Below, piece after piece: positions 5,890-21,422 of a stretch of DNA of 64,000 bases. The position numbers and the translations under genes were made by a program. Source of the stretch: Spirochaetota bacterium (GTDB lineage Bacteria; Spirochaetota; UBA4802; UBA5550); NCBI GenBank assembly GCA_050298055.1, contig JBNKTL010000022.1, positions 1-64,000 of the forward strand, in the 5' to 3' direction. Below the pieces are notes generated by a model that did no database searches, was not told where the DNA came from, and was given only the letters and a program-made list of their open reading frames with translations. Position 1 is the first letter of the stretch. Each line of letters opens with the position of its first letter.

Positions 5890-8556
5890 TCAGAGCTTAT
5901 CTATTCTCACTGCCGCAACCTTTGTCTCCGGTATTTTTGCCACCGGGTCAAGGGCCGGATTTGTTATATCATTGGTGGGGATCTCATGGAAGTGAAAAGT
6001 CATGGATACCACTCCCGGGGGACAGATATCTGTTGTTTTAACCTTAACATCCAGTTTGCCCCTTCTCGAGGATATCTTGACAATCTCTTCGTCCGAAATA
6101 CCCAGTTTTCCCGCATCTTCCGGGTTGATCTTCAGGACCTCCTCACTGTTCATCTCCTCCAGTCCCCTGACCTGCCGGGTCATGGTACTTGTGTGGAAAT
6201 GAAAGATACTCCTGTCAGTGGTCAGGATAAAAGGATACTCCTTGTCCGGGACCTCGGCACTCTCCCTGTACTCCAGGGCTACAAAATTCCCGAGCCCCCG
6301 GGGGAACTTCTCCGTATGAAGTATGGGTGTTCCGGGATGGTCCCCTGACGGACAGGGCCACTGGAGACCCTGCTCCTTAATCCTCTCGTAGCTTATCCCC
6401 GCATAACTGGGAGTGAGCGATCTTATCTCTTCGAATATCTCCTCCGGGCTTTCATAGTCAAAGCCCTTACCTCCCGTTCTCTTTGCTATCTCGGAGCTGA
6501 TCCACCAGTCCTGTTTTGCTTCACCGGGAGGATCCAGGGCCTTGTACATCCTCTGGACACGGCGCTCGGTATTTGTCACGGTTCCGTCTTTCTCCGCAAA
6601 TGCGGCCCCCGGGAGGACAACATCGGCAAGCTGCGCCGTTTCGGTGAGGAAGATATCCTGCACAACCATAAAGTCCATCTTTTTAATGGCTTCACGGGCG
6701 TGATGGGCATTGGCCTCGCTGAGGATGGGGTTCTCTCCCACAACGTAGAGTCCTTTGATATTCCCCTTGTGGGCCTCGTCAAAGATAACGGTGTGTGTGA
6801 GCCCCACCCTGCCGTCCAGCTTTACACCCCACGCTTCCTCAAATTTTTTCTGCGCGTCGGGATTGTCCACCCTCTGGTACCCGGGATAGACATCGGGAAG
6901 ACCGCCAACGTCACATGCCCCCTGCACATTGTTCTGTCCCCTCAGGGGATTGACCCCCGCCCCCGGTTTCCCGATATTTCCGGTGAGCATGGCCAGGTTC
7001 GCGGTTGCCATAACATTGTCCGTGCCGTGGGAGTGCTGGGTAATACCCATGGCGTATATGATGGCCGCGGGACTGTTCTCCGCGTACATCCTTGCCGCTG
7101 CCGCGATCTTTTCTCCCGGCACGCCGGTTATCTTTTCAACCTTGTCCAGGGTGAAGTCTTTCAGTGATTTCTTCAGTTTGTCAAAGTTTTCGGTTCTCTC
7201 TTTAATAAATGTTTCATCCTGGAGGTTCTCATCCAGAATGACCTTCATCATCCCCATAAGAAGGGCAACATCGGTACCGGGCTTATGCTGGATAAAAATA
7301 TCAGCATGCTCAGTAAGCCGGATATTTTTGGGGTTCGCCACAATCAGCTTCGCGCCGTTTTTTACCGCTGCTTTTACGTTGACGGCAAAGACAGGATGAG
7401 CCGCGGTTGTATTGGAACCGATTGAGAATATACAGGAAGATTCCCTTATATCATTTACATTGTTTGTCATGGCACCGCTGCCGAAGGAAGTGACCAGACC
7501 GGCCACAGTAGGAGCGTGTCATAAGCGCGCGCAGTGATCAACACTGTTGGTGCCCATCACCGCCCGGGTAAACTTCTGTATAAGATAGTTTTCTTCATTG
7601 GTACACTTTGCCGACGCAAATGTGGCAAACTCTCCCTTCTTATAGCTCCTGAACTTTTCGGCCACCAGGTCAAGGGCCTCGTCCCAGTCAGACTCAACCA
7701 GCTCACCGTTCTTTCTAATCAGGGGCCTGGTAAGCCTCTCCCCGCTGTTAACATATTCATAGCCGTAACGTCCCTTAACACAGAGGGAACCTTTGTTGAC
7801 CGGACTCTTTCTGTCGCCCCTCACGCTGACAATACTGTCCCCCCGGACACCGAGATAGATTCCGCACCCCACACCGCAGTAGGAGCAGATTGATTTGACC
7901 TCCCGGGCGGGTTCCTTCACATTCTTCGGCAGGAGGGCCCCCACCGGGCACCTGACCACGCACTCACCGCACGACTCACAGCGGGATTCCTTGATGGGCC
8001 TGTGCCCGAAGGTGCTGATCCTGGTATCGTATCCCCTGTTGGCATAGTCGATGGCAAAAATGTTCTGGATCTCGTCACATGTCCTGACACATATGCCGCA
8101 GTAGATGCACTTATTGGGGTCCCTGTCAAAAAAGGGATTGGACGTGTCCATCTCCTCATCCATTTCCGCGAAGCGGATTTCTCCCAGGTCTTCCGGCTTG
8201 AGATCGAGGTAGGAAGCCACTCTCTGGAGCTGGCAATCGTTCCCTTTTCCACAGGTCACACAGTCCGTTTTGTGGTTCGCGAAGATCAGCTCAACGGGGA
8301 CTTTTCTAATCCTGTTCAGCTCCTTGCCGTCGGTCTTGATCTTCATCCCCTCTTCTACCTGGGTCCTGCACGAGATCGTGGCACCCCGGCCCTCGATATC
8401 CACCATGCAGACCCTGCAGACCCCTGCGGGTTCAAGGTCCTGGTGATGGCAGAGATGGGGTATATAGATACCGTTTTCAAGGGCTGTTTCAAGAATAGTC
8501 CTCCCCTTGTCCGCGGTTACGGTCATTCCGTCAATTGTAAGTGTAACTTTTTCCAT
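5890..8556 (-). CDS. fdhA: Selenocysteine-containing cytoplasmic formate dehydrogenase alpha subunit with NuoG-like N-terminal Fe-S domains (888 aa, Sec346)
   Basis: ORFs 7519..8619 and 5890..7506 are one frame joined through TGA at 7519-7521: [27 protein letters not shown]. ATG at 8556 has a GGAGGAG RBS. 2Fe-2S, 2x4Fe-4S, CSYCGVGC and PLRGQNNVQG motifs present. Confidence 0.95.
7490..7506 (-). promoter_or_regulatory. Bacterial SECIS-like hairpin for the fdhA UGA
   Basis: On the minus strand, 12 nt after UGA: GTGGCC-GGTCT-GGTCAC, a 6-bp stem with a G-starting apical loop. Confidence 0.7.
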
Positions 8557-8561
8557 TATGA

Positions 8562-10445
8562 TTATACTCCTCCGATTTGTCCCGGAATCATGTTGATTGC
8601 ATTGAATTTTGGCGGGCATTTTTCAAAACATGCTCCGCAGAGTATGCATTTGCCCTGGTCGATCACATGTATCTGCTTTTTCGCACCGGTGACGGCATCT
8701 GCCGGGCAGACAGAGGCACAGATCCTGCATCCGGCACACTTCAGGGGATCGATATAGTAGGATATGAGCTCCCTGCAGACCTTTGAGGGACACTTCTTCT
8801 CGGTAATGTGCGCCTCATACTCCTTCCTGAAGTATCTCAGTGTGGAGAGTACCGGGTTGGGGGCAGTCTGCCCCAGTCCGCAGAGAGAAGTCCTCTTTAT
8901 GGAGTGTCCCAGCTCCTCAAGGAGGTCCAGGTCTTCCATCTTCCCCCTTCCCTGGGTAATATCGTTGAGAATGTCGAGCATCTGCTTTGTTCCCAGCCTG
9001 CAGGGAACGCATTTACCGCATGATTCCTTCTGGGTAAATTCCAGGAAGTACCTTGCAACATCAACCATGCAGTTGCCCTCATCCATAACAACCATACCGC
9101 CGGAGCCCATTATCGTTCCCGCGGCATTGAGGGAATCGTAATCAACAGGGATATCGAGCTTCTCGGCGGGAAGACATCCCCCCGAGGGCCCGCCGGTCTG
9201 TACGGCCTTGAACTCCTTGTCATCGAGGATACCGCCCCCGATATCGTATATCATCTCCCTCAGGGTAATCCCCATGGGGACCTCAACAAGCCCCGTGTTC
9301 TTTACCTTACCCACAAGCGCAAAGGTCTTTGTCCCTTTACTGGCCTCGGAACCTACCTCCCGGAACCAGTCCGAACCGTTCTGAAGGATGAGGGCAACCG
9401 AAGCCAGGGACTCCACGTTGTTTATGATGGTGGGCTTGCCCCAGAGCCCGGAAACAGCGGGAAAGGGAGGCCGGGGTCTCGGCATCCCCCTGTCCCCTTC
9501 AACGGAGGCGATCAGGGCCGTCTCTTCGCCGCATACGAAAGCGCCGGCCCCTTCCTTGATCTTCAGTTCGAAGTCAAATCCGGCCCCCATGATGTCCCCG
9601 CCGAGAAAACCCAGTTCTCTCGCCTGCCTCAGGGCAAGATCAAGCCTCTCAAGGGCCAGGGGATATTCAGCGCGGCAGTAGATATAACCTTTTGTTGCGC
9701 CAATTGCCCTTCCGGCTATTACCATACCCTCCACCAGGGCATGGGGATCGCCTTCAAGAAGCGAACGGTTCATGAAGGCGCCGGGATCTCCTTCATCGGC
9801 ATTACAGATGAGATACTTCTGGTCTCCCGGGGCATCGGAACAGAACTGCCACTTTCTCCATGTGGGGAAACCGGCACCGCCCCGTCCCCTGAGGCCCGAT
9901 TCTTTTATTTCATCAATAATTTCCCGGGGTGTCATACTCACGGCTTTTTTCAGGCCGCTGTATCCCCCGGTTGCTATGTAGTGGTTCACATTGCTGGGAT
10001 TGATATCGCCGCACCTCCTGGTTACCCTTCTAACCTGGGGTTTGTAGACATTGCTTTCATCAAGCCGGGGGATACCCTCCAGTGTTCCTTCACCTATGGT
10101 GCCAACAATGTACTCCTTTACCGGCTCGTTACCGGAGATATGCTTTTCGATGATCTCCTTTGTTTTTGCCACGTCGATATTGCTGTAGACAACAGTGGGC
10201 TGTGAAGGCTTTGATACGGTCACCAGGGGCTCAAGAAAACAGAGACCATTGCAGCCAACCTGTACCACTTCACTCTCTACATCCAGATAGGTCAGCTCGT
10301 TCTGAAATTCCCGGAGGGTCTCCATTGAGCCGGCGGAACGCCCGCAGGTTGCTGTTCCCACACTGATCACGGGCTTATCAACCGACTTGAGCTCTTTCCA
10401 CTCTTCTACCGCTTTTCCCATTATATCTTTAAATTTTTTGCTCAT
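8562..10445 (-). CDS. NuoF/HydB-like NAD(H)/FMN-binding subunit with C-terminal 2x[4Fe-4S]
   Basis: GLRGRGGAGFP, NADEGDPG, GAFVCGEETALI, ESCGKCVPCRLG; C-terminal CAGCRIC and CILCGAC; N-terminal thioredoxin-like Fe-S domain. Confidence 0.92.
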   Translation of the reverse strand: MSKKFKDIMGKAVEEWKELKSVDKPVISVGTATCGRSAGSMETLREFQNELTYLDVESEVVQVGCNGLCFLEPLVTVSKPSQPTVVYSNIDVAKTKEIIEKHISGNEPVKEYIVGTIGEGTLEGIPRLDESNVYKPQVRRVTRRCGDINPSNVNHYIATGGYSGLKKAVSMTPREIIDEIKESGLRGRGGAGFPTWRKWQFCSDAPGDQKYLICNADEGDPGAFMNRSLLEGDPHALVEGMVIAGRAIGATKGYIYCRAEYPLALERLDLALRQARELGFLGGDIMGAGFDFELKIKEGAGAFVCGEETALIASVEGDRGMPRPRPPFPAVSGLWGKPTIINNVESLASVALILQNGSDWFREVGSEASKGTKTFALVGKVKNTGLVEVPMGITLREMIYDIGGGILDDKEFKAVQTGGPSGGCLPAEKLDIPVDYDSLNAAGTIMGSGGMVVMDEGNCMVDVARYFLEFTQKESCGKCVPCRLGTKQMLDILNDITQGRGKMEDLDLLEELGHSIKRTSLCGLGQTAPNPVLSTLRYFRKEYEAHITEKKCPSKVCRELISYYIDPLKCAGCRICASVCPADAVTGAKKQIHVIDQGKCILCGACFEKCPPKFNAINMIPGQIGGV

Positions 10446-10897
10446 TTCTTGCTTCCCTTGCCAAAAAGATCGGCGACCTTTTTCGGCGTAAGCTTTGCCT
10501 CAACCTTCTTGTTCACCATAACACAGGGCGCGAGACTGCAGGCACCGATACAGGCAACTGACTCTAATGTATATTCAAGGTCGGGAGTGGTCCCTCCCTC
10601 CCTGACATTCAGTTGTGTTTCAAGCTCCTCCAGGATCCGGGGCGCGCCCCTCACGTGACATGCCGTCCCCCTGCAAACCATGACCAGGTTCTTCCCCATG
10701 GGGGTAAACCTGAACTGCGCGTAGAAGGTGGCCACAGCATAGACCTTGCTCTCCGATACACCTGTAAAACCGGCTATCAGTTCCATGGCTTCATCGGGAA
10801 GATAGCCCAGTTCGCCCTGAACTTCCTGTAATATAGGAATCAACTCCTCTTTGGTCCCTTTGTAGGACGAAAAGATCTCGTTAAGTCTGACCTTCAT
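10442..10897 (-). CDS. NuoE/HydC-like [2Fe-2S] subunit
   Basis: CRGTAC...CIGAC; ATGA overlap with the NuoF-like gene. Confidence 0.92.
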   Translation of the reverse strand: MKVRLNEIFSSYKGTKEELIPILQEVQGELGYLPDEAMELIAGFTGVSESKVYAVATFYAQFRFTPMGKNLVMVCRGTACHVRGAPRILEELETQLNVREGGTTPDLEYTLESVACIGACSLAPCVMVNKKVEAKLTPKKVADLFGKGSKK

Positions 10898-14437: not shown

Positions 14438-15613
14438 TTAGTGCACGTCTTTAAGAAACGATTCCGAGAACTGGTCCCAGAGCGCGTCATCCATAACGGG
14501 TTCCAGTATGAGATCATCAGCCTGGACATCCTTATCCTCACTCTCAACCTCAACCTCTTTTTTGAGTTCCGAGATCATCCGGACATACTTATCGATCTCC
14601 GTCTGGTACCATGATACGGCATCCGAGCCGATCTTCAGGGACTGGAGTTCGCCGCCCAGATTAGAGGCTTCAATATAACAGACCCATCCGTGCTCATAGG
14701 GCTTTATCTTGAGGAGTTCCACGTTGTCATGGAGTTTTTCGTTAACATACTTGATTATGCCGGAAACAGGTGAAAGAAAATCAGCAACCCTCTTTCCCTG
14801 CTTTACGGAAAAAAGGACATTGCCCCGAGTGACTTCATCCCCCCTGGCGGGAAGGACCACCTCGTCTATGGGGCCCATTATCTTCTGGACAAAATCATCC
14901 AAGCCTACTTTCACAAGCCCGTTCTGTTCAATACTTCCCCAGGTATGACTGGATGATATAAAGACACCGGATGGCACGTTGAATTCATGGATTGAGTCTG
15001 ACTCCTTTGATGAGGGCGTAACAAGGTTCACGGTTGGTTTGACTTTCCGTTCGATCCTGTCCTGTCTCTTTATCAGGGACTTGTTTACAAAGCTGATAAG
15101 TTCATCCTCTGTGAAGGGCTTCTGCACATAGTCCATTGCACCGTATTTCATGGTCTCTACGGCAGTTTCTATTGTGGCATAACCCGTTATAACGATGATA
15201 TCAATATCGGGACGCAGGTGTTTGACGGCCTTGGTGACCTCAACACCATCCATTCCCGGCATCTTCAGATCGGTAAAGACAAAGTCGTAGTCTTTTCGTT
15301 TTACCAGCATCAGCGCTTCGGGACCCGATTCGACGGTATCTATAGAGTAACCGTCCAGTACAAGTATCTTTCTAAAGCTGTCCAGGACAATCTCCTCATC
15401 ATCGATAGCAAGAATACTGGCCTTTGGTTTTTCTACCCTGACGCGCTTTAGTGTCTTGGCCTCATCGGCAACAATAATTTTAAGACCGCTGTCAAGGGCC
15501 TTCTGCCTCTCCTTGTGAGTTTTTGCATCATTGAACTTTTTAATGACTATTCTCAGCAAAAGATCAACAAGTATAAAAGACAGAATTGTAACAATAACTA
15601 TCCCAATAACCAT
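14438..15613 (-). CDS. Membrane-anchored response regulator fused to a glycine cleavage H-like domain
   Basis: N-terminal TM; REC (IDDE, TDLKMPGMDG, ITGYA, KP); H-protein-like HTW...VKVGLDDF...SPVSG...PYEHGW; AGGAGG RBS. Confidence 0.85.
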   Translation of the reverse strand: MVIGIVIVTILSFILVDLLLRIVIKKFNDAKTHKERQKALDSGLKIIVADEAKTLKRVRVEKPKASILAIDDEEIVLDSFRKILVLDGYSIDTVESGPEALMLVKRKDYDFVFTDLKMPGMDGVEVTKAVKHLRPDIDIIVITGYATIETAVETMKYGAMDYVQKPFTEDELISFVNKSLIKRQDRIERKVKPTVNLVTPSSKESDSIHEFNVPSGVFISSSHTWGSIEQNGLVKVGLDDFVQKIMGPIDEVVLPARGDEVTRGNVLFSVKQGKRVADFLSPVSGIIKYVNEKLHDNVELLKIKPYEHGWVCYIEASNLGGELQSLKIGSDAVSWYQTEIDKYVRMISELKKEVEVESEDKDVQADDLILEPVMDDALWDQFSESFLKDVH

Positions 15614-15648
15614 TTTAAACCTCCTTAATGGAAAACAATAAACCCAAA

Positions 15649-16512
15649 TTAGATGAGACTTTTATCTGTTTTTAATTGAAGATATACCACTTCTCTTTCT
15701 CTGTCCTGTGGTATAATTCGAGTTAACCAGCCATTAAAAAAAGGATCACGATTTATCAGATCATGATCTTTCAGAAGTTCACTGTTATTCTCTATTATTC
15801 TCCCGCTCAGGGGTGAGAGAATCCTGTGTGTAATACTGTTTCCCGATACAATATTTACAAACTCATTACCCTGTGCTATCTCCTGGTTGTTATCAGGCAT
15901 CTGGAGATCTTTAATCTCACCCATTGAATGGGAAAAGGTAATACCCACGCCTAACTTTGCGGAACCGTCATCATTGAACTTGACCCAGGAGTGGTCCCCG
16001 AGAAAATAGTAGTCCTCAAGATTATCATCATGTGTAAAGCTTTTCAGGTATTCCTCGCGGCTGTTGAATTCCAGGGAACAGGCAGCATAATTGAGTCCCC
16101 TGCTTACTACCGAGAGGAGTTCATCGAAGCTGAAAGGCTTCGGAATAAAGTCAAATGCTCCACCGTTAAAGGTATCCATGATGTTGGTCAGCGTGGCATA
16201 TCCGGTAATGATGATGATCGGCATCCGGGGAAATTTTGCGTTTACCTTTTCCAGGAGCTGAAATCCCGATTTTCCCGGCATCATCAGGTCTGTGATCATC
16301 ATTCGATAGCTCTTTTCATCCAGGAGTTCAATTGCTTCTTCAGCACTATTCACCGCGTCAAGTGAATATCCTTCACTTTTTAATATTTTCAGAGATGAAT
16401 CAAGAACCACATCCTCATCATCAACCAGAATGATATCCTTTTTATCAATTTTATCCATATTATCCGTCAATTCCGCACCCTGAATATAATATACATTATA
16501 CTCTTTTACCAA
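15649..16512 (-). CDS. Response regulator fused to a glycine cleavage H-like domain (start may be 16458)
   Basis: REC (VDDED, TDLMMPGKSG, ITGYA, KP) then HSWV...KLGV...SPLSG...DPFFNGWL. Confidence 0.85.
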   Translation of the reverse strand: MVKEYNVYYIQGAELTDNMDKIDKKDIILVDDEDVVLDSSLKILKSEGYSLDAVNSAEEAIELLDEKSYRMMITDLMMPGKSGFQLLEKVNAKFPRMPIIIITGYATLTNIMDTFNGGAFDFIPKPFSFDELLSVVSRGLNYAACSLEFNSREEYLKSFTHDDNLEDYYFLGDHSWVKFNDDGSAKLGVGITFSHSMGEIKDLQMPDNNQEIAQGNEFVNIVSGNSITHRILSPLSGRIIENNSELLKDHDLINRDPFFNGWLTRIIPQDREREVVYLQLKTDKSLI

Positions 16513-16518
16513 TCAAAT

Positions 16519-18009
16519 TCACAGGGGTAATTTTATGGTAAAAGTGGTCCCTTTCTCCACTTCGCTCTCAACATCTATCTTTCCATTGTGTTCGTCGATA
16601 ATTCCCAGTACAACCGAGAGCCCGAGACCGGTACCCTCCTGGCCTTTCGTGCTGAAAAAGGGATCAAAAATACTATTGATCTTGTCCCGGGGAATGCCGT
16701 GCCCGGTATCGGAAATTTTAACTTCAATAAACTTTGAGCTGTTGACATCTTTCAAATGTGTCAATATGACGATCCCGCCTCCCTTCTCCCCGATTGCATG
16801 GGCCGCGTTGGTTATAAGATTTATAAATACCTGCTGAAGCTGTACAAAGTCGGCTTCAATATCGGGAATGTCATCCAGGAAAAACTTGTCAACACTTATG
16901 TTCTTCATGACAAGCTCATTTTCAAGGATTGCAAGTGCCTGTTCAATAACGACATTAATATTATTTTTCGTCTTCTTCGGCGGGACCTGCCGCGCAAAAT
17001 CGAGAAGCCCTTTGATGATCTCCCTGCATCTCTTGGTCTCCCTTACGATCACATTAAGGCTCTCTTTAAGCTCCTTTTTGTCCAGCTTGTCACCCTCAAT
17101 CCTTTTCAGGTGATAGCTGCTGTAGGTCAGGACACCGGTGAGGGGGTTGTTTATCTCATGGGCGATCCCCGCAGCGATCTGACCCAGTGAAGCGAGCTTC
17201 GCGTTGTGATAGAGCTGGTTCTGGGTCTCGGAGATCTTGTCGATCATTGCATTGAAAGACAGTGCAAGTTTTCTCATTTCATGCTTTTCGCCTATATTGA
17301 CCTTATACTTATAATCTCCCGCGGAAACCGCATCGGTTGCCGCCAGAAGCTCCTTTGTCGGTTTACCAAACAGTTTATAAACAAGGAACCAGAGGACAAA
17401 GCCGTTTGCCGCAATGGCAATAAAAGCAAGAATCATCAGCTCAGCCGTAAAGGTATTGATCTGGGTATCAACGGTCTCAAGGGACATGATAACATCCATG
17501 ACACCCAGGACTTTGCTATCGGGACCGTGGACATGGCAGCTGCTCTCCCAGCACGCCCTTTCATTGTAGACCGGGCTTATTATACCGAGATACTTATGCC
17601 CGTCCACCGTTTTAAAGAACCTGGTCCTCTGGGAAATTGTCAGCTTATCAAGAACAAGTCCCTGCCCATGGCATCCATAACACATCTCTCCCTTCATATC
17701 AACAATGCTGTTCACCTCTCCTTCAAGTGAAGAATAGATAATTGTCCCCACCTTGTTGATCACACGGACCCTTTCGATCCCGCCCTGTTGTCCGATGGTG
17801 TCAATTATCCTCCGTATCCTGGGCCTGTTGTTCTGGAGCATATCGTACCTGGTGCTCCGCTTAACGGTCTCACTCAGCTGGTTTGCATGATTTTCAATTC
17901 CTGTTATTATCTGTTTTCGGTACGATTTCGCACTTAAATATGAGAATATGCTTATACTGATCATTCCCACAATTCCGATAGCAAATATTAATTTATAACT
18001 TGTAAGCAT
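16519..18009 (-). CDS. NtrB-like sensor histidine kinase with HAMP and extracytoplasmic heme-motif domain
   Basis: 2 TM; extracytoplasmic CYGCH and CWESSCHVH; HAMP; AHEINNPL; DTGHG, FFSTK, GTGLGL. Confidence 0.92.
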   Translation of the reverse strand: MLTSYKLIFAIGIVGMISISIFSYLSAKSYRKQIITGIENHANQLSETVKRSTRYDMLQNNRPRIRRIIDTIGQQGGIERVRVINKVGTIIYSSLEGEVNSIVDMKGEMCYGCHGQGLVLDKLTISQRTRFFKTVDGHKYLGIISPVYNERACWESSCHVHGPDSKVLGVMDVIMSLETVDTQINTFTAELMILAFIAIAANGFVLWFLVYKLFGKPTKELLAATDAVSAGDYKYKVNIGEKHEMRKLALSFNAMIDKISETQNQLYHNAKLASLGQIAAGIAHEINNPLTGVLTYSSYHLKRIEGDKLDKKELKESLNVIVRETKRCREIIKGLLDFARQVPPKKTKNNINVVIEQALAILENELVMKNISVDKFFLDDIPDIEADFVQLQQVFINLITNAAHAIGEKGGGIVILTHLKDVNSSKFIEVKISDTGHGIPRDKINSIFDPFFSTKGQEGTGLGLSVVLGIIDEHNGKIDVESEVEKGTTFTIKLPL

Positions 18010-18607
18010 GGAAAAACTCTTTTTACTGTTGACTCTTAAATTATCTTATTGAAAAAATCAGTACAAGTAATTTATTTAATTGTAATGACTCCGCTGTATA
18101 AAATAATTTAAAGCTATTTACAAAAATGCTCCCAACCTGTTTCCGCAACACAAAGCGGCGGAAACATTTCAATTATATTTTTATAGTGAATATGATTATT
18201 TTTTCACATTGCTGAGTATCTACATTTAATTTCCCGGTAATATACAATAATTTTGATAGAAAAAACAGTCAATGCTTTTAATTTTTTTTATTATTTAATT
18301 GACAATATATATATTATATAATAACGATTGAAAAAAATAAATCGAGAAGTAACAATGGAGGAATAGTGAAAGCTTATGGGGACTTCTAAAGATTAAATTT
18401 ACCATATTTCACCTGTAGATAATTTTCTTCTTAATTTAATCTTATTTACTATGTATCGTTATGCGGGCAGTGTATTTTGCTTCTTTAAAAAAGCAAATAG
18501 GCCTTAAGAATTCCCCGGCAATCTCCATCACAAAAACACATTCAAACAATTGAACTAAAACGGGCTGAGAGATAATTTAACAATCCGGAGTAATTAAAGA
18601 GGTAATT

Positions 18608-19075
18608 ATGAAGATAATCTACGTTCTTTTTATACCTGTTCTTCTCCTCTTAGTGTTAACCGTTGGATACGGGCAGAAGGGGAGCGGAGCATTAAAGATA
18701 CCCGATAAAATTAAAACCCCCTCTCACGTAGGTGAAGTAAATTTTCCTCACAGGGCACATTTTGACGATTTCAATGTTGAATGCCAAAACTGCCATCACA
18801 GGATCAGAGCATCTTCATTAAAAATACCCCACAGGTTTTCTACCAGGGACAACTGGAAAGACTGTACCTACTGTCACAATCCTGATCGTAAGAGGCATAA
18901 TCTCTACAGCTGCAGGAACTGTCACAATAAACTTGAAAAGAACTACATGAAACAGGTCCTCAGCTATAAAGTGGTCATTCACAAATCATGTGTTGAATGC
19001 CATGAAATGGGAAAAGGGGTAGAAGCAAGTAAATCGTGTAAATTCTGCCATTCCGGGAAAAAGCAGGAATATTAA
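18608..19075 (+). CDS. Multiheme class III-like cytochrome c (5 CxxCH)
   Basis: Signal peptide; FPHRAH; CQNCH, CTYCH, CRNCH, CVECH, CKFCH. Confidence 0.9.
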   Translation: MKIIYVLFIPVLLLLVLTVGYGQKGSGALKIPDKIKTPSHVGEVNFPHRAHFDDFNVECQNCHHRIRASSLKIPHRFSTRDNWKDCTYCHNPDRKRHNLYSCRNCHNKLEKNYMKQVLSYKVVIHKSCVECHEMGKGVEASKSCKFCHSGKKQEY

Positions 19076-19162: not shown

Positions 19163-20047
19163 TTGACAATGGATAGAAGAAAGTTTATTAAAACACTCGC
19201 ATCAGCATGCGGCATATTGTCCGGAAAAAATCTTTTTGCTCAAAACCGTGAAAAACCGTCTCCAAAGGAATTTATAGGAATACTCACCGATATAAGCAGA
19301 TGCATTGGGTGCCGTTCCTGTGAAGTGGCCTGCGGAAAGGCTAATAATATGCATGTCCCCCAAGTGGAAAAGGACGGCGCCCTCAATAAGATACGAAAAA
19401 CCAGTGAAAAACAGCTGACAGTGGTAAACAGGTTCAAGACAAGCAAGGGAGAGTTTTATGTAAAAAAACAGTGCATGCACTGCTGGCAGCCGGCATGTGC
19501 ATCGGCATGCCTGACCAATGCCATGTACAAGACAAAAGAAGGACCCATTATCTGGAGGGAGGAGATGTGCATGGGCTGCAGGTACTGTATGGTGGCATGC
19601 CCCTTCGAGATACCAAAGTACGAGTACAACTCCCGGAACCCAAAGGTCCAAAAATGTACAATGTGCTTCCGGCGGCTGGAGAAAGGACAGCTGCCCGCGT
19701 GCGTGGAGACCTGCCCCAGAGGCGCCCTTACCTTCGGCTTAAAGAGAGACCTTATGGAGATAGCGCGAACCAGGATCTATAGAAATCCGGACAGGTATGA
19801 ACATCACATCTATGGCGAGCATGAGGCGGGAGGTACCGGCTGGCTTTATATATCCCCCGTCCCATTTAATGAACTGGGATTCAAAACAGACCTGGGCTCG
19901 GAACCGTACCCGGGATATACCAGGGAATTCCTCTATGCAGTACCGGGAGTATTGCTGGTTGTCCCTCCCCTGCTCTACGGGCTCAGCCAGTTAACAAAAA
20001 GAGATGAAGATGTTATACCTGCAAGAGGGAGGGAAAACCATGACTAA
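19163..20047 (+). CDS. Tat-signal 4x[4Fe-4S] subunit (HybA/HmcB-like)
   Basis: DRRKFIK twin-arginine; CIGCRSC, CMHC..PAC, CMGCRYC, CTMC..PAC; IYGEHEAGGT; C-terminal TM (start may be ATG 19169). Confidence 0.9.
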   Translation: MTMDRRKFIKTLASACGILSGKNLFAQNREKPSPKEFIGILTDISRCIGCRSCEVACGKANNMHVPQVEKDGALNKIRKTSEKQLTVVNRFKTSKGEFYVKKQCMHCWQPACASACLTNAMYKTKEGPIIWREEMCMGCRYCMVACPFEIPKYEYNSRNPKVQKCTMCFRRLEKGQLPACVETCPRGALTFGLKRDLMEIARTRIYRNPDRYEHHIYGEHEAGGTGWLYISPVPFNELGFKTDLGSEPYPGYTREFLYAVPGVLLVVPPLLYGLSQLTKRDEDVIPARGRENHD

Positions 20048-21266
20048 GACAACAGTGGAAAGAGAAGAAATCACCGATGAACCTGATCTCATAAAAAAAA
20101 AGAGCACCTTGCGATTTGTTCTCCGGGAGATGAAACCGAAGGGGAATATCTTCACTCCGTTTAATTTTATTTCAATACCCATCATCATCACAGGACTGGT
20201 TATTCTCTTCTTCAGGTTCTATTACGGGCTTGGTTCCGTGACAAACCTGTCACAGGAGTTTCCCTGGGGCTTCTGGGTGGGTTTTGATGTTGTAACGGGG
20301 GTCGCTTTCGCAGCAGGAGCGTATATCATAACCTTTACCGTATATATCATGAGGGCCGAGAAGTATCACCCCATTGTCAAGGTCACGGTCCTGAACGGGT
20401 TTCTGGCTTATGTCTTCTACGCCGGGGCGCTGGCCCTTGACCTCGGACGTCCCTGGAAGATCATTAACCCGCTCATAGGGAACTCTTTCGGTTATAACTC
20501 GGTCCTCTTCCTTGTGGCCTGGCATTTTATGCTCTATATGATAGCGCAGTTTATCGAGTTTTCACCGGTTGTAGCGGAATGGCTGGGATATGAAAAAGCC
20601 AGACGGTTTCTCCGGAAGCTCACACTGGGGGCAGTGATATTCGGAATAACCCTTTCCCTCCTGCACCAGTCGGGGCTGGGGGCGCTCTTTCTCCTGGCGA
20701 AGTCGAAGATCCATCCCCTCTGGTATACGGAGTTCATCCCCCTCCTCTTTGTGGCGTCGAGCATACCCGCGGGCCTCTCCATGATACTCTTTGAGAGCAG
20801 TATAAGCCACAGGGTGTTCAGCCATAAGATCGACCCGGAAAGCCATCACAGGTTTGAGGATATCCGGTTCGGCCTGGCGAAGGGGGCCGCCATATCCCTT
20901 TTTGTCTATTACTTCTTCAAGGCGATCATTTTTATCCACGGCCACCACTGGTCGCTCATGGGGGACATCTGGGGTGTATGGTACTTTGTGGAAGTCATCG
21001 GCTTTGTGCTTGTACCCTGCGTTATGTACGCCCACGCATACAGGAACAGGAACAGGGGCCTCATCAGTATAGCATCGGTCATAACACTTATCGGTATCGT
21101 GATCAACAGGCTCAATATATCGATTATTACATTCAACTGGAAGTCGGAGGTCAGGTACTACCCTTCGTGGCAGGAGATCGTTGTGACCCTGATGATCATC
21201 TCAATTGAGATATGGGCCTTCCGCTGGGTAGTCAACAGGATGCGGGTCTTTGAAGAAGACCATTAA
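20040..21266 (+). CDS. NrfD-family integral membrane subunit (HybB/HmcC-like)
   Basis: GLGSVTNL..FPWG.W..FDV..GVA, DLGRPW, LSLLHQSGLG; about 10 TM; GGGAGG RBS before ATG 20040. Confidence 0.9.
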   Translation: MTKTTVEREEITDEPDLIKKKSTLRFVLREMKPKGNIFTPFNFISIPIIITGLVILFFRFYYGLGSVTNLSQEFPWGFWVGFDVVTGVAFAAGAYIITFTVYIMRAEKYHPIVKVTVLNGFLAYVFYAGALALDLGRPWKIINPLIGNSFGYNSVLFLVAWHFMLYMIAQFIEFSPVVAEWLGYEKARRFLRKLTLGAVIFGITLSLLHQSGLGALFLLAKSKIHPLWYTEFIPLLFVASSIPAGLSMILFESSISHRVFSHKIDPESHHRFEDIRFGLAKGAAISLFVYYFFKAIIFIHGHHWSLMGDIWGVWYFVEVIGFVLVPCVMYAHAYRNRNRGLISIASVITLIGIVINRLNISIITFNWKSEVRYYPSWQEIVVTLMIISIEIWAFRWVVNRMRVFEEDH

Positions 21267-21281: not shown

Positions 21282-21422
21282 ATGCCGGGACATCTGGAAA
21301 CATACACATACGTGAATATCTTCGAAACAAAGGGCCTGGAGTACCTGCTGCTCATCAGCTTCCTGGTGCTCTTTATTCTCTTTATCAGGTATTTTCTCTC
21401 GGACAGACCCGCTGGGAAATAG
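21282..21422 (+). CDS. 46-aa single-TM protein (HmcD-like candidate), absent from ORF track
   Basis: AAGGAGGT RBS; MPGHLETYTYVNIFETKGLEYLLLISFLVLFILFIRYFLSDRPAGK; 15 bp after the NrfD gene. Confidence 0.75.
   Translation: MPGHLETYTYVNIFETKGLEYLLLISFLVLFILFIRYFLSDRPAGK

Follow-up and report, generated by a model that had tools for sequence, protein, structure and literature searches.

Two tandem response regulators with a lipoate-free H-protein-like output domain beside an Hmc/Nhc-like quinone module

Response regulators are usually read as transcription factors. CheY, RssB, CpdR and PhyR have an output that binds proteins rather than DNA, and to our knowledge none of these four possesses an H-protein output fold or a membrane tether. 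GcvH-like proteins outside glycine cleavage are represented by LbpA of the sulfur-oxidising Hdr-like systems, which is found beside membrane and redox enzymes of anaerobic and sulfur metabolism and requires the lipoyl-Lys and dedicated ligases. In this study we analyzed a stretch of 64,000 nucleotides from a Spirochaetota bacterium (assembly GCA_050298055.1, contig JBNKTL010000022.1, positions 1 to 64,000 of the forward strand), which is called the window below. Two tandem genes of the window, RR-A and RR-B, encode response regulators in which the receiver is followed by an H-protein-like domain, and they lie beside genes for a sensor kinase and a quinone module.

Nhc is described as a TpIc3:quinone oxidoreductase in the accessible text of a review of NrfD-type complexes (PMC8076601), and the terms glycine cleavage, GcvH and response regulator do not occur in that text. 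According to the accessible text on the Desulfovibrio hmc operon (10.1101/2023.11.02.564894, PMC13344952), Rrf1, a receiver-type protein encoded beside this operon, affects hmc expression. Among open-access full texts and preprints, we found no description of a receiver-GCV_H protein or of an H-like protein next to an NrfD complex.

Domain structure and lipoyl register of RR-A and RR-B

RR-A and RR-B are functional-looking receivers whose sole output is an H-fold without lipoate. The two genes and their parts are as follows.

14438..15613, minus strand: RR-B, 391 residues, membrane-anchored response regulator; in order, N-terminal transmembrane helix, linker, receiver, H-protein fold, long helix and C-terminal W..F..FL helix
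15548..15613, minus strand: RR-B transmembrane anchor (residues 1-22), from hydropathy, the AlphaFold2 (AF2) helix 2-43 and the alignments
15044..15418, minus strand: RR-B receiver domain (residues 66-190), closest to receivers of the NtrC family
14633..14986, minus strand: RR-B H-protein-like domain (residues 210-327), from Pfam, the structure match and the alignments
14441..14632, minus strand: RR-B C-terminal tail (residues 328-391), with helix 330-355, a disordered stretch and helix 376-387
15649..16512, minus strand: RR-A, 287 residues, soluble; receiver and H-protein-like domain, with neither transmembrane helix nor tail
15685..16017, minus strand: RR-A H-protein-like domain (residues 166-276), with a variable hairpin tip and no Lys in the lipoyl register

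A first-pass annotation of the window had described the pair as tandem regulators with intact receiver motifs, an H-protein-like domain and no DNA-binding or AAA+ output, and the domain searches agree with it on each point. In Pfam, RR-B matched the receiver domain at residues 67-176 (E 8.5e-31) and GCV_H at residues 220-327 (E 1.7e-21). The corresponding regions of RR-A were residues 27-136 (E 6e-26) and 169-276 (E 5.5e-20). The scores of the pair were 106.9 and 91.2 bits for the receiver (PF00072; cut-off 30.2) and 76.8 and 71.9 bits for GCV_H (PF01597; cut-off 22.2). Pfam found no other output domain in either protein; that is, both the sigma-54 AAA+ domain and HTH_8 are missing.

The receiver residues are D31/D32, D75, T103 and K125-P126 in RR-A, and D71/D72, D115, T143 and K165-P166 in RR-B. 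The acidic pair, the phospho-Asp, the Thr and the Lys were each kept in at least 88% of the orthologues (75 of RR-A and 76 of RR-B), and most of them were invariant. The receivers of both proteins were closest to those of the NtrC family, and in the AF2 models both showed the alternating strands and helices of the (beta-alpha)5 type.

The AF2 model of RR-B had a predicted local distance difference test score (pLDDT) of 84.6. It consisted of a transmembrane and linker helix (2-43), the receiver (66-190) and the H-fold (210-323), followed on the C-terminal side by a long helix (330-355) and a short one (376-387). When Foldseek aligned the C-terminal domain of this model with E. coli GcvH (3ab9), the template modelling score was 0.93, with a root-mean-square deviation of 1.4 A over 127 columns. 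A protein-atlas search with the C-terminal half of RR-B returned only clusters named GCV_H (0.82-0.87). The RR-A model gave a pLDDT of 87.7 and a predicted template modelling score of 0.84. The core motifs of the H-protein, namely HxW, G.DdfaQ, PvSG, N, dPY and GW, are kept.

RR-B is strongly conserved over its full length, many positions being kept in at least 85% of the 76 orthologues. The conserved parts include D17 and R21 of the transmembrane helix, the linker, and W379, F386 and L/F387 of the tail. The longest open reading frame of RR-A begins at TTG. Because residues 1-17 had a pLDDT below 50 and a Met stands at the column of M19 in 70 of the 75 orthologues, the true start of RR-A is probably M19 (window 16458). 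RR-A lacks the conserved Cys residues that many RR-A proteins of Ignavibacteriota have.

We then compared the position that carries the lipoyl group in GcvH. K274 of RR-B (codon 14792-14794) is in the register of the lipoyl-Lys, 8 residues before the Pro of PVSG. The hairpin of RR-B reads K-Q-G-K-R against E-S-V-K-A in GcvH; that is, the Glu three residues upstream is replaced by Lys. RR-A has Ser in the register. The first-pass annotation had read these residues correctly, and it had given functional weight to the contrast between a protein that keeps the Lys and one that has lost it. This weight is not borne out by the orthologues. The column contained Asn in 32 of the 76 RR-B orthologues, Lys in 11, Ser in 8, Thr in 7, Gly in 6, Gln in 5 and other residues in 7, and Lys was absent from all nine closest (clade I) relatives shown. 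Across the RR-A family the register holds Asp, Gly or Glu, with Lys in 3 of 75 orthologues. The contrast between RR-B and RR-A is an accident of a variable position.

In RR-B, a basic hairpin is conserved around this position: Lys or Arg at -11 (Glu in GcvH) in 70 of the 76 orthologues, Gln at -10 in 64, Gly at -9 in 57, and Arg or Lys at -7 in 69. The hairpin of RR-A is one residue longer and variable at its tip, and His229, five residues before the Pro, was kept in 67 of 75 orthologues.

The source genome, which is 98.3% complete with 0.77% contamination, was searched for the genes of lipoylation and glycine cleavage. There was no match in it to the LplA/LipB catalytic domain (PF21948) or to GcvP (PF02347), and the sole match to PF03099 (BPL family) was BirA. 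LipA gave no match over the cut-off (TIGR00510, 29.3 against 310), and GcvT (PF01571) reached only 21.2 bits, which is under the cut-off. One biotinyl/lipoyl domain was present. Since LplA/LipB, LipA, GcvP and GcvT are missing from the genome and the Lys is variable, lipoylation of RR-A or RR-B in the source organism is very unlikely.

With the GcvH equivalog TIGR00527, RR-B scored 66.7 and RR-A 60.6 against a cut-off of 115.85. RR-A and RR-B are not functional GcvH proteins, because the Lys is not conserved, the scores are under the equivalog cut-off and the partner genes are absent. The lipoyl function has been lost, and the automatic label "glycine cleavage system H protein" is misleading for the receiver-GCV_H/H-tail family. 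That lipoylation genes are missing from the whole genome and that the Lys of the lipoyl register varies are new observations.

The source genome also has a stand-alone gene for a GcvH-like protein of 132 residues (C7:78255-78599; L001:1483-1881, minus strand), which adjoins aroQ. The protein scored 104.6 against the NCBIfam GcvH cut-off of 117 and has Leu at the position of the lipoyl-Lys. Thus, the only free H-protein of the genome also appears lipoate-free, in keeping with the absence of lipoylation genes.

The conserved cassette and its receiver-less relatives

The kinase, RR-A, RR-B and an Hmc/Nhc-like quinone module form a conserved cassette, of which the kinase is putatively haem-sensing. 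In the window, the kinase, RR-A and RR-B follow one another in this order on the minus strand, and the genes for the cytochrome, the HmcB-like protein, the HmcC-like protein and a small peptide lie on the plus strand. The neighbours are listed below.

16519..18009, minus strand: sensor histidine kinase; two transmembrane helices flanking a periplasmic domain of about 155 residues, then HAMP, HisKA and HATPase
18010..18607: divergent spacer of 598 bp between the kinase operon and the cytochrome operon
18608..19075, plus strand: small exported c-type cytochrome, c3/c7-like, with five CxxCH motifs
19163..20047, plus strand: HmcB/HybA-like 4Fe-4S protein, exported by twin-arginine translocation (Tat), with a C-terminal anchor
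20004..21266, plus strand: HmcC/NhcC-like membrane subunit of the NrfD family
21282..21422, plus strand: peptide of 46 residues with a single transmembrane helix, HmcD-like by position

The periplasmic domain of the kinase has CxxCH at residue 110 and CxxxxCH at residue 153. For the HmcB-like gene the best match was NF045715 (333 bits against a cut-off of 420) and for the HmcC-like gene NF045714 (394.9 bits against 550), yet both were under threshold. The 46-residue peptide matched the HmcD profile weakly (E 0.034; 14.1 bits against 34), and its FxTKGxEY motif was invariant across its relatives.

One genome per species was scanned, and the best 80 of 562 confirmed relatives, which do not form a random sample, gave the loci. 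Their phyla are Ignavibacteriota, KSB1, Gemmatimonadota, Acidobacteriota, Elusimicrobiota, Cloacimonadota and others. RR-B lay directly 3' of RR-A in 72 of the 74 loci with at least 1.4 kb downstream, and the kinase lay directly 5' of RR-A in 63 of the 66 with at least 2.2 kb upstream. Of the 45 loci with 6 kb or more on each side, 44 had HmcB- and HmcC-like genes within 6 kb. Among 64 adjacent kinases, 61 had one CxxCH and one CxxxxCH in the first 230 residues. When the open reading frames of the 80 loci were clustered, the kinase was found in 75, the regulators in 74, HmcB in 59, HmcC in 58 and a multihaem cytochrome of about 380 residues in 49; the next commonest cluster covered 21, and the clusters held no conserved DNA-binding protein. 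The neighbours named in the first-pass annotation, from the CxxCH kinase and the five-CxxCH cytochrome to the 46-residue peptide, are real, and the linkage that it proposed between the regulators, the kinase and the cytochrome/HybA/NrfD module is strongly conserved.

The H-fold of RR-B together with its tail was then used as a profile (A6) against 1.84 billion representatives. At E<=1e-30 it matched 188 representative clusters (50% identity), and the top 150 matches were mostly not response regulators. One class consists of proteins of about 225 residues with a transmembrane anchor, H-fold and tail (TM-H-tail) and without a receiver, whose anchor, basic hairpin and tail (...DGG...W..F..FL) are as in RR-B. 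Their anchors have an acidic residue near the cytoplasmic end and are of the same type as that of RR-B. RR-B possesses all three features of this family, namely the anchor with the acidic residue, the K/R-Q-G-x-R/K hairpin and the W..F..F(F/L) tail, and its receiver is inserted between the anchor and the H-fold. The tail is common to all receiver-less H-tail proteins. RR-A shares only the H-fold with them. In 17 of the genome loci there is a further HmcB-HmcC operon, whose first gene encodes a TM-H-tail protein of about 223 residues.

Other members carry further fusions. Proteins of 545-615 residues (P0207, P0239, P0230) have a signal peptide, a periplasmic domain like that of periplasmic binding proteins (PBP), a transmembrane helix and the H-tail, and they look like one-piece transmembrane receptors with the H-tail as the cytoplasmic end. 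The only match to PBP_like_2 was in P0239, and it was under the cut-off (E 3.7e-4). Three Ignavibacteriota genomes were matched by the PBP-TM-H-tail query through the H part only; a query with the periplasmic part found no fused form in 251 Ignavibacteriota genomes, only free-standing binding proteins of 320-350 residues with 22-27% identity. In P0182, the FxTKGxEY anchor of the 46-residue peptide is followed by two H-tail units. In L005, an anchor of the same peptide type is fused to an H-tail and encoded directly after HmcC; its match to the HmcD profile was weak and under the cut-off (E 7.9e-5). The H-fold-plus-tail module thus predates the proteins in which it is joined to a receiver.

A scan of metagenomes with an alignment of 11 receiver-less proteins (A9) gave 80 loci. 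Among the 49 loci with at least 900 bp downstream, an HmcB-like gene started within 700 bp 3' of the H-tail gene in 36, and the other 13 had no HmcB-like gene after it. HmcB and then HmcC followed the H-tail gene in 25 of the 32 loci with at least 2.6 kb downstream. Of the 13 loci without an HmcB-like gene, L122 and L123 have two H-like genes followed by unrelated transporter genes. L146 and L158 have unrelated neighbourhoods (a SpoIID-domain kinase and an amidase) and are weak matches with 34-36% identity. Nineteen loci were well flanked, with about 5 kb or more on each side, and their contents are listed below.

HmcB, HmcC, kinase and sigma-54 AAA+ regulator: 14 of 19 loci
Kinase and sigma-54 regulator without HmcB/C: 2 of 19 loci
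HmcB/C and kinase: 1 of 19 loci
HmcB/C only: 1 of 19 loci
None of HmcB/C, kinase and regulator: 1 of 19 loci

Both haem motifs were present in 15 of 19 plus-strand open reading frames of the kinases of these cassettes. The receiver-less H-like proteins occur in pairs, in which a soluble protein with an N-terminal four-Cys motif is encoded just before a membrane-anchored one. RR-A and RR-B look like this pair with receivers added, and their cassette like one from which the sigma-54 activator has been lost. The receiver-less H-fold with its tail, its HmcD-like and PBP fusions and the linkage of receiver-less cassettes to sigma-54 activators are new.

For RR-B we made a quick IQ-TREE tree, the careful search being unfinished. 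It gave two clades with an SH-aLRT (Shimodaira-Hasegawa-like approximate likelihood ratio test) value of 100, one of 11 rows, including the window, and one of 63 rows. Nine rows of the smaller clade had an HmcC-like gene within 3 kb downstream and two had no HmcC match; the window is labelled "downstream" by our own labelling, although the position of its complex is upstream of the kinase operon and divergent from it. In the larger clade no row had an HmcC-like gene within 3 kb downstream, the complex being upstream. Besides the usual kinase-RR-A-RR-B, two Ignavibacteriota loci possess one more RR-B, which belongs to the first clade, immediately precedes a complex of the window type and has no kinase or RR-A of its own. 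This arrangement is consistent with co-inheritance of RR-B and the complex.

In the phylum of the window, the H-fold-plus-tail module was found in 2 of 301 sampled genomes, namely the source genome and one of the same family. RR-B has its closest relatives in metagenome-assembled genomes of KSB1, Gemmatimonadota and Ignavibacteriota and in others labelled Bacteroidota. Because the module is so rare in its own phylum and these relatives belong to other phyla, it is suggested that the source genome acquired the cassette by transfer.

Several further features were seen in and around these loci. In the window at 7519-10897 (minus strand, upstream), translations read by eye indicated a set of NuoE-like, NuoF-like and Fe-S/formate-dehydrogenase-N-terminal-like genes; G+C is 0.54 there and about 0.45 around the cassette. 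In Rosettibacter primus (L033:12159-18729), RR-B is directly followed by a multihaem cytochrome/cytochrome-b fusion, three further multihaem cytochromes and a protein of 420 residues of no known family; this set looks like extracellular electron-transfer genes. The four-Cys motif of the soluble receiver-less protein (C.WM, 15 residues, C, 6 residues, CE.C) was seen in L099:5108-5992, L098:5127-5990, L137:6715-7518 and L010:842-1579 (minus strand), and it may be a metal or cluster site. One receiver-less cassette (L099:7972-9567) has an NrfD subunit that is extended at its C-terminus by a cytochrome c7-like domain. The protein P0144 (1391 residues) has three tandem Lys-less H domains together with a GlcD-like FAD oxidase, 4Fe-4S and two CCG (HdrD/GlpC-like) domains.

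Possible role of the H-like domains

As a tentative interpretation, and the one we put first, we propose that RR-A and RR-B are a phosphorylation-controlled docking module, the H-like domains docking at the cytoplasmic face of the membrane module. RR-A and RR-B would be the phosphorylatable forms of two accessory proteins that are H-protein-like, free of lipoate and conserved as a pair, in the cassette that unites the Hmc/Nhc-like quinone module with the kinase and its periplasmic sensor of two haem motifs. The kinase would sense the redox or ligand state of a periplasmic haem and phosphorylate D75 of RR-A and D115 of RR-B. Phosphorylation would then alter the docking of each H-like domain onto a partner on the cytoplasmic side of the membrane. 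The H-like domain of RR-B has the basic K/R-Q-G-x-R/K hairpin where GcvH has the lipoyl arm, is tethered by the transmembrane helix and is followed by the conserved C-terminal helix. The candidate partner ranked first is the membrane module itself, either its NrfD subunit on the cytoplasmic side or its HmcD-like peptide. As a result, the two-component system might tune the flow of electrons or protons through the complex post-translationally. Phosphotransfer from the kinase, the docking, the identity of the partner and the effect on activity are steps that we infer from the domains and the gene linkage.

Docking at the membrane module was ranked first because RR-B is tethered to the membrane, the HmcD-type anchor is fused to the H-tail, and TM-H-tail genes open HmcB-HmcC operons. 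The strong conservation of RR-B over its full length, together with the tether, is consistent with a fixed structural partner. The fusion of the FxTKGxEY anchor to the H-tail in L005 and P0182 may be regarded as a Rosetta-stone fusion, which points to the complex as the partner. We also counted in favour of this interpretation the tight linkage of the regulators to the kinase, HmcB and HmcC, the two clades of the RR-B tree with the complex on different sides, and the lack of a conserved DNA-binding gene, of a sigma-54 match in the spacer and of an activator on the contig. That is, the spacer (18010-18607) contained no -24/-12 match with up to two mismatches, the whole window contained 28 such matches against 24.5 expected by chance, and no sigma-54 activator gene was found on the contig of the window. 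A predicted complex of the HmcC-like subunit (A5) and full-length RR-B (A4) scored 0.00 in two runs; the controls did not fold, so that this result speaks neither for nor against docking.

Several points weigh against docking at the complex. The PBP-TM-H-tail forms look like receptors with a signal-transmitting H-tail and thereby favour a signalling partner. The gene linkage can also be explained by plain transcriptional autoregulation of the cassette. RR-A has neither anchor nor tail, and its role is therefore less defined than that of RR-B. The labels on the RR-B tree are shared by kin, so co-evolution with the complex is not proven. In the 19 well-flanked receiver-less loci, a kinase was present in 17 and a sigma-54 activator in 16, as often as HmcB and HmcC together (16). 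L098 and L137 have the H-like pair, the kinase and the activator, and no HmcB/C within 6 kb.

A more specific and more doubtful form of the proposal is that a family of NrfD/HybA quinone modules carries a pair of lipoate-free H-protein subunits on the cytoplasmic face, and that in the receiver-bearing version the haem-sensing kinase phosphorylates this pair and so gates the respiratory complex directly. If this is true, a respiratory complex would be gated post-translationally and not via transcription, and an old carrier fold would serve as a switchable plug or docking piece.

The serious rival to direct control of the complex is an effect through signalling or transcription, and it is serious because receiver-less cassettes usually carry a sigma-54 activator. 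Here the H-fold-plus-tail would have as its partner not the complex but the kinase or a transcription factor, which could be a sigma-54 activator encoded elsewhere; the two regulators would act in partner switching or feedback under control of their phosphorylation, with transcription of the cassette as the final output. We place this explanation second, only a little below docking at the complex. In the receiver-less cassettes, the H-like pairs occur with the same family of haem-motif kinases and, in 16 of 19 loci, with an activator of the NtrC type; L098 and L137 even have these without HmcB/C. In the receiver-bearing cassettes, a sigma-54 AAA+ gene was found in the flanks of 16 of the 80 loci, but neither an activator nor another DNA-binding gene is conserved. 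The receivers of RR-A and RR-B are most like those of the NtrC family, but just two sigma-54 activators were found in the source genome, neither of them on the contig of the window, and the cytochrome operon has no -24/-12 element upstream. The PBP-TM-H-tail proteins are receptor-like, with the H-tail as a possible transmitter, whereas the fusion of the HmcD-like anchor to the H-tail and the TM-H-tail genes that open HmcB-HmcC operons favour the complex. An effect on expression has a parallel in Rrf1 beside the Desulfovibrio hmc operon, as far as the accessible text goes (10.1101/2023.11.02.564894, PMC13344952).

It is improbable that the two proteins are helpers of assembly or maturation, such as an escort of the Tat-exported Fe-S subunit or a factor for assembly of the membrane module, or that they form a phosphate sink for the kinase. 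The H-like genes share operons with the Tat-dependent Fe-S protein, but Pfam and NCBIfam show no similarity to known Tat chaperones, and L098 and L137 have no Fe-S client. Two receivers on one kinase are a known sink layout in branched two-component systems, but a sink would not need the very high conservation of the H-fold hairpin and the tail.

A genuine lipoyl or redox carrier, in which a lipoyl or other acyl group on K274 of RR-B would carry reducing equivalents as in GcvH or LbpA, is hardly credible: K274 is in the exact register within a complete fold, and P0144 indicates that H-like folds meet redox enzymes, but no more than 11 of 76 orthologues have the Lys, the nine closest lack it, Lys or Arg replaces the upstream Glu in 70 of 76, both GcvH equivalog scores (66.7 and 60.6) are far under 115.85, and LplA/LipB, LipA, GcvP and GcvT were not found in the 98.3%-complete genome. 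Of the earlier suggestion that the H-fold serves here as an interaction or redox module, its use outside glycine cleavage therefore stands, and the lipoyl-based redox role is very unlikely.

Comparison with known systems

The conserved two-component system described here has two regulators, and each has, instead of a DNA-binding part, a metabolic carrier fold without the cofactor site. The H-fold-plus-tail family is widespread in several phyla, mostly in uncultured anaerobes, and adjoins modules connecting periplasmic cytochromes with the quinone pool, among them apparent extracellular electron-transfer clusters in Melioribacteraceae. The partner of the H-like domain would tell whether bacteria switch a respiratory complex by phosphorylation, and it would also explain the small subunits of the HmcD/NhcD type.

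Compared with GcvH (PF01597, TIGR00527), RR-A and RR-B have the complete H-protein fold and the core motifs. GcvH has a conserved lipoyl-Lys, whereas RR-B has the basic hairpin and RR-A a longer, variable hairpin in its place. In addition, the fold is fused here to a receiver, and in RR-B also to a transmembrane anchor and a C-terminal tail. The two proteins differ from LbpA in that the Lys is not conserved, the genome has no ligase and the cassette has no Hdr-like genes.

RR-A and RR-B resemble CheY, RssB, CpdR and PhyR in having a receiver without a DNA-binding or enzymatic output. With the NtrC-type sigma-54 activators only the receivers are alike, since RR-A and RR-B lack the AAA+ domain and HTH_8. 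Rrf1 is similar in being a receiver protein encoded beside an Hmc-type complex; in the accessible text it is treated as a CheY-like receiver and an H-protein domain is not mentioned, so that this comparison is one of descriptions only. Finally, the order of multihaem cytochrome, HmcB-like protein, HmcC/NhcC-like NrfD subunit and small hydrophobic peptide is the same here as in NhcABCD and HmcABCDEF. The cytochromes of those systems have nine or sixteen haems, in contrast to the five haem motifs here, and the operon of the window is without HmcE and HmcF.

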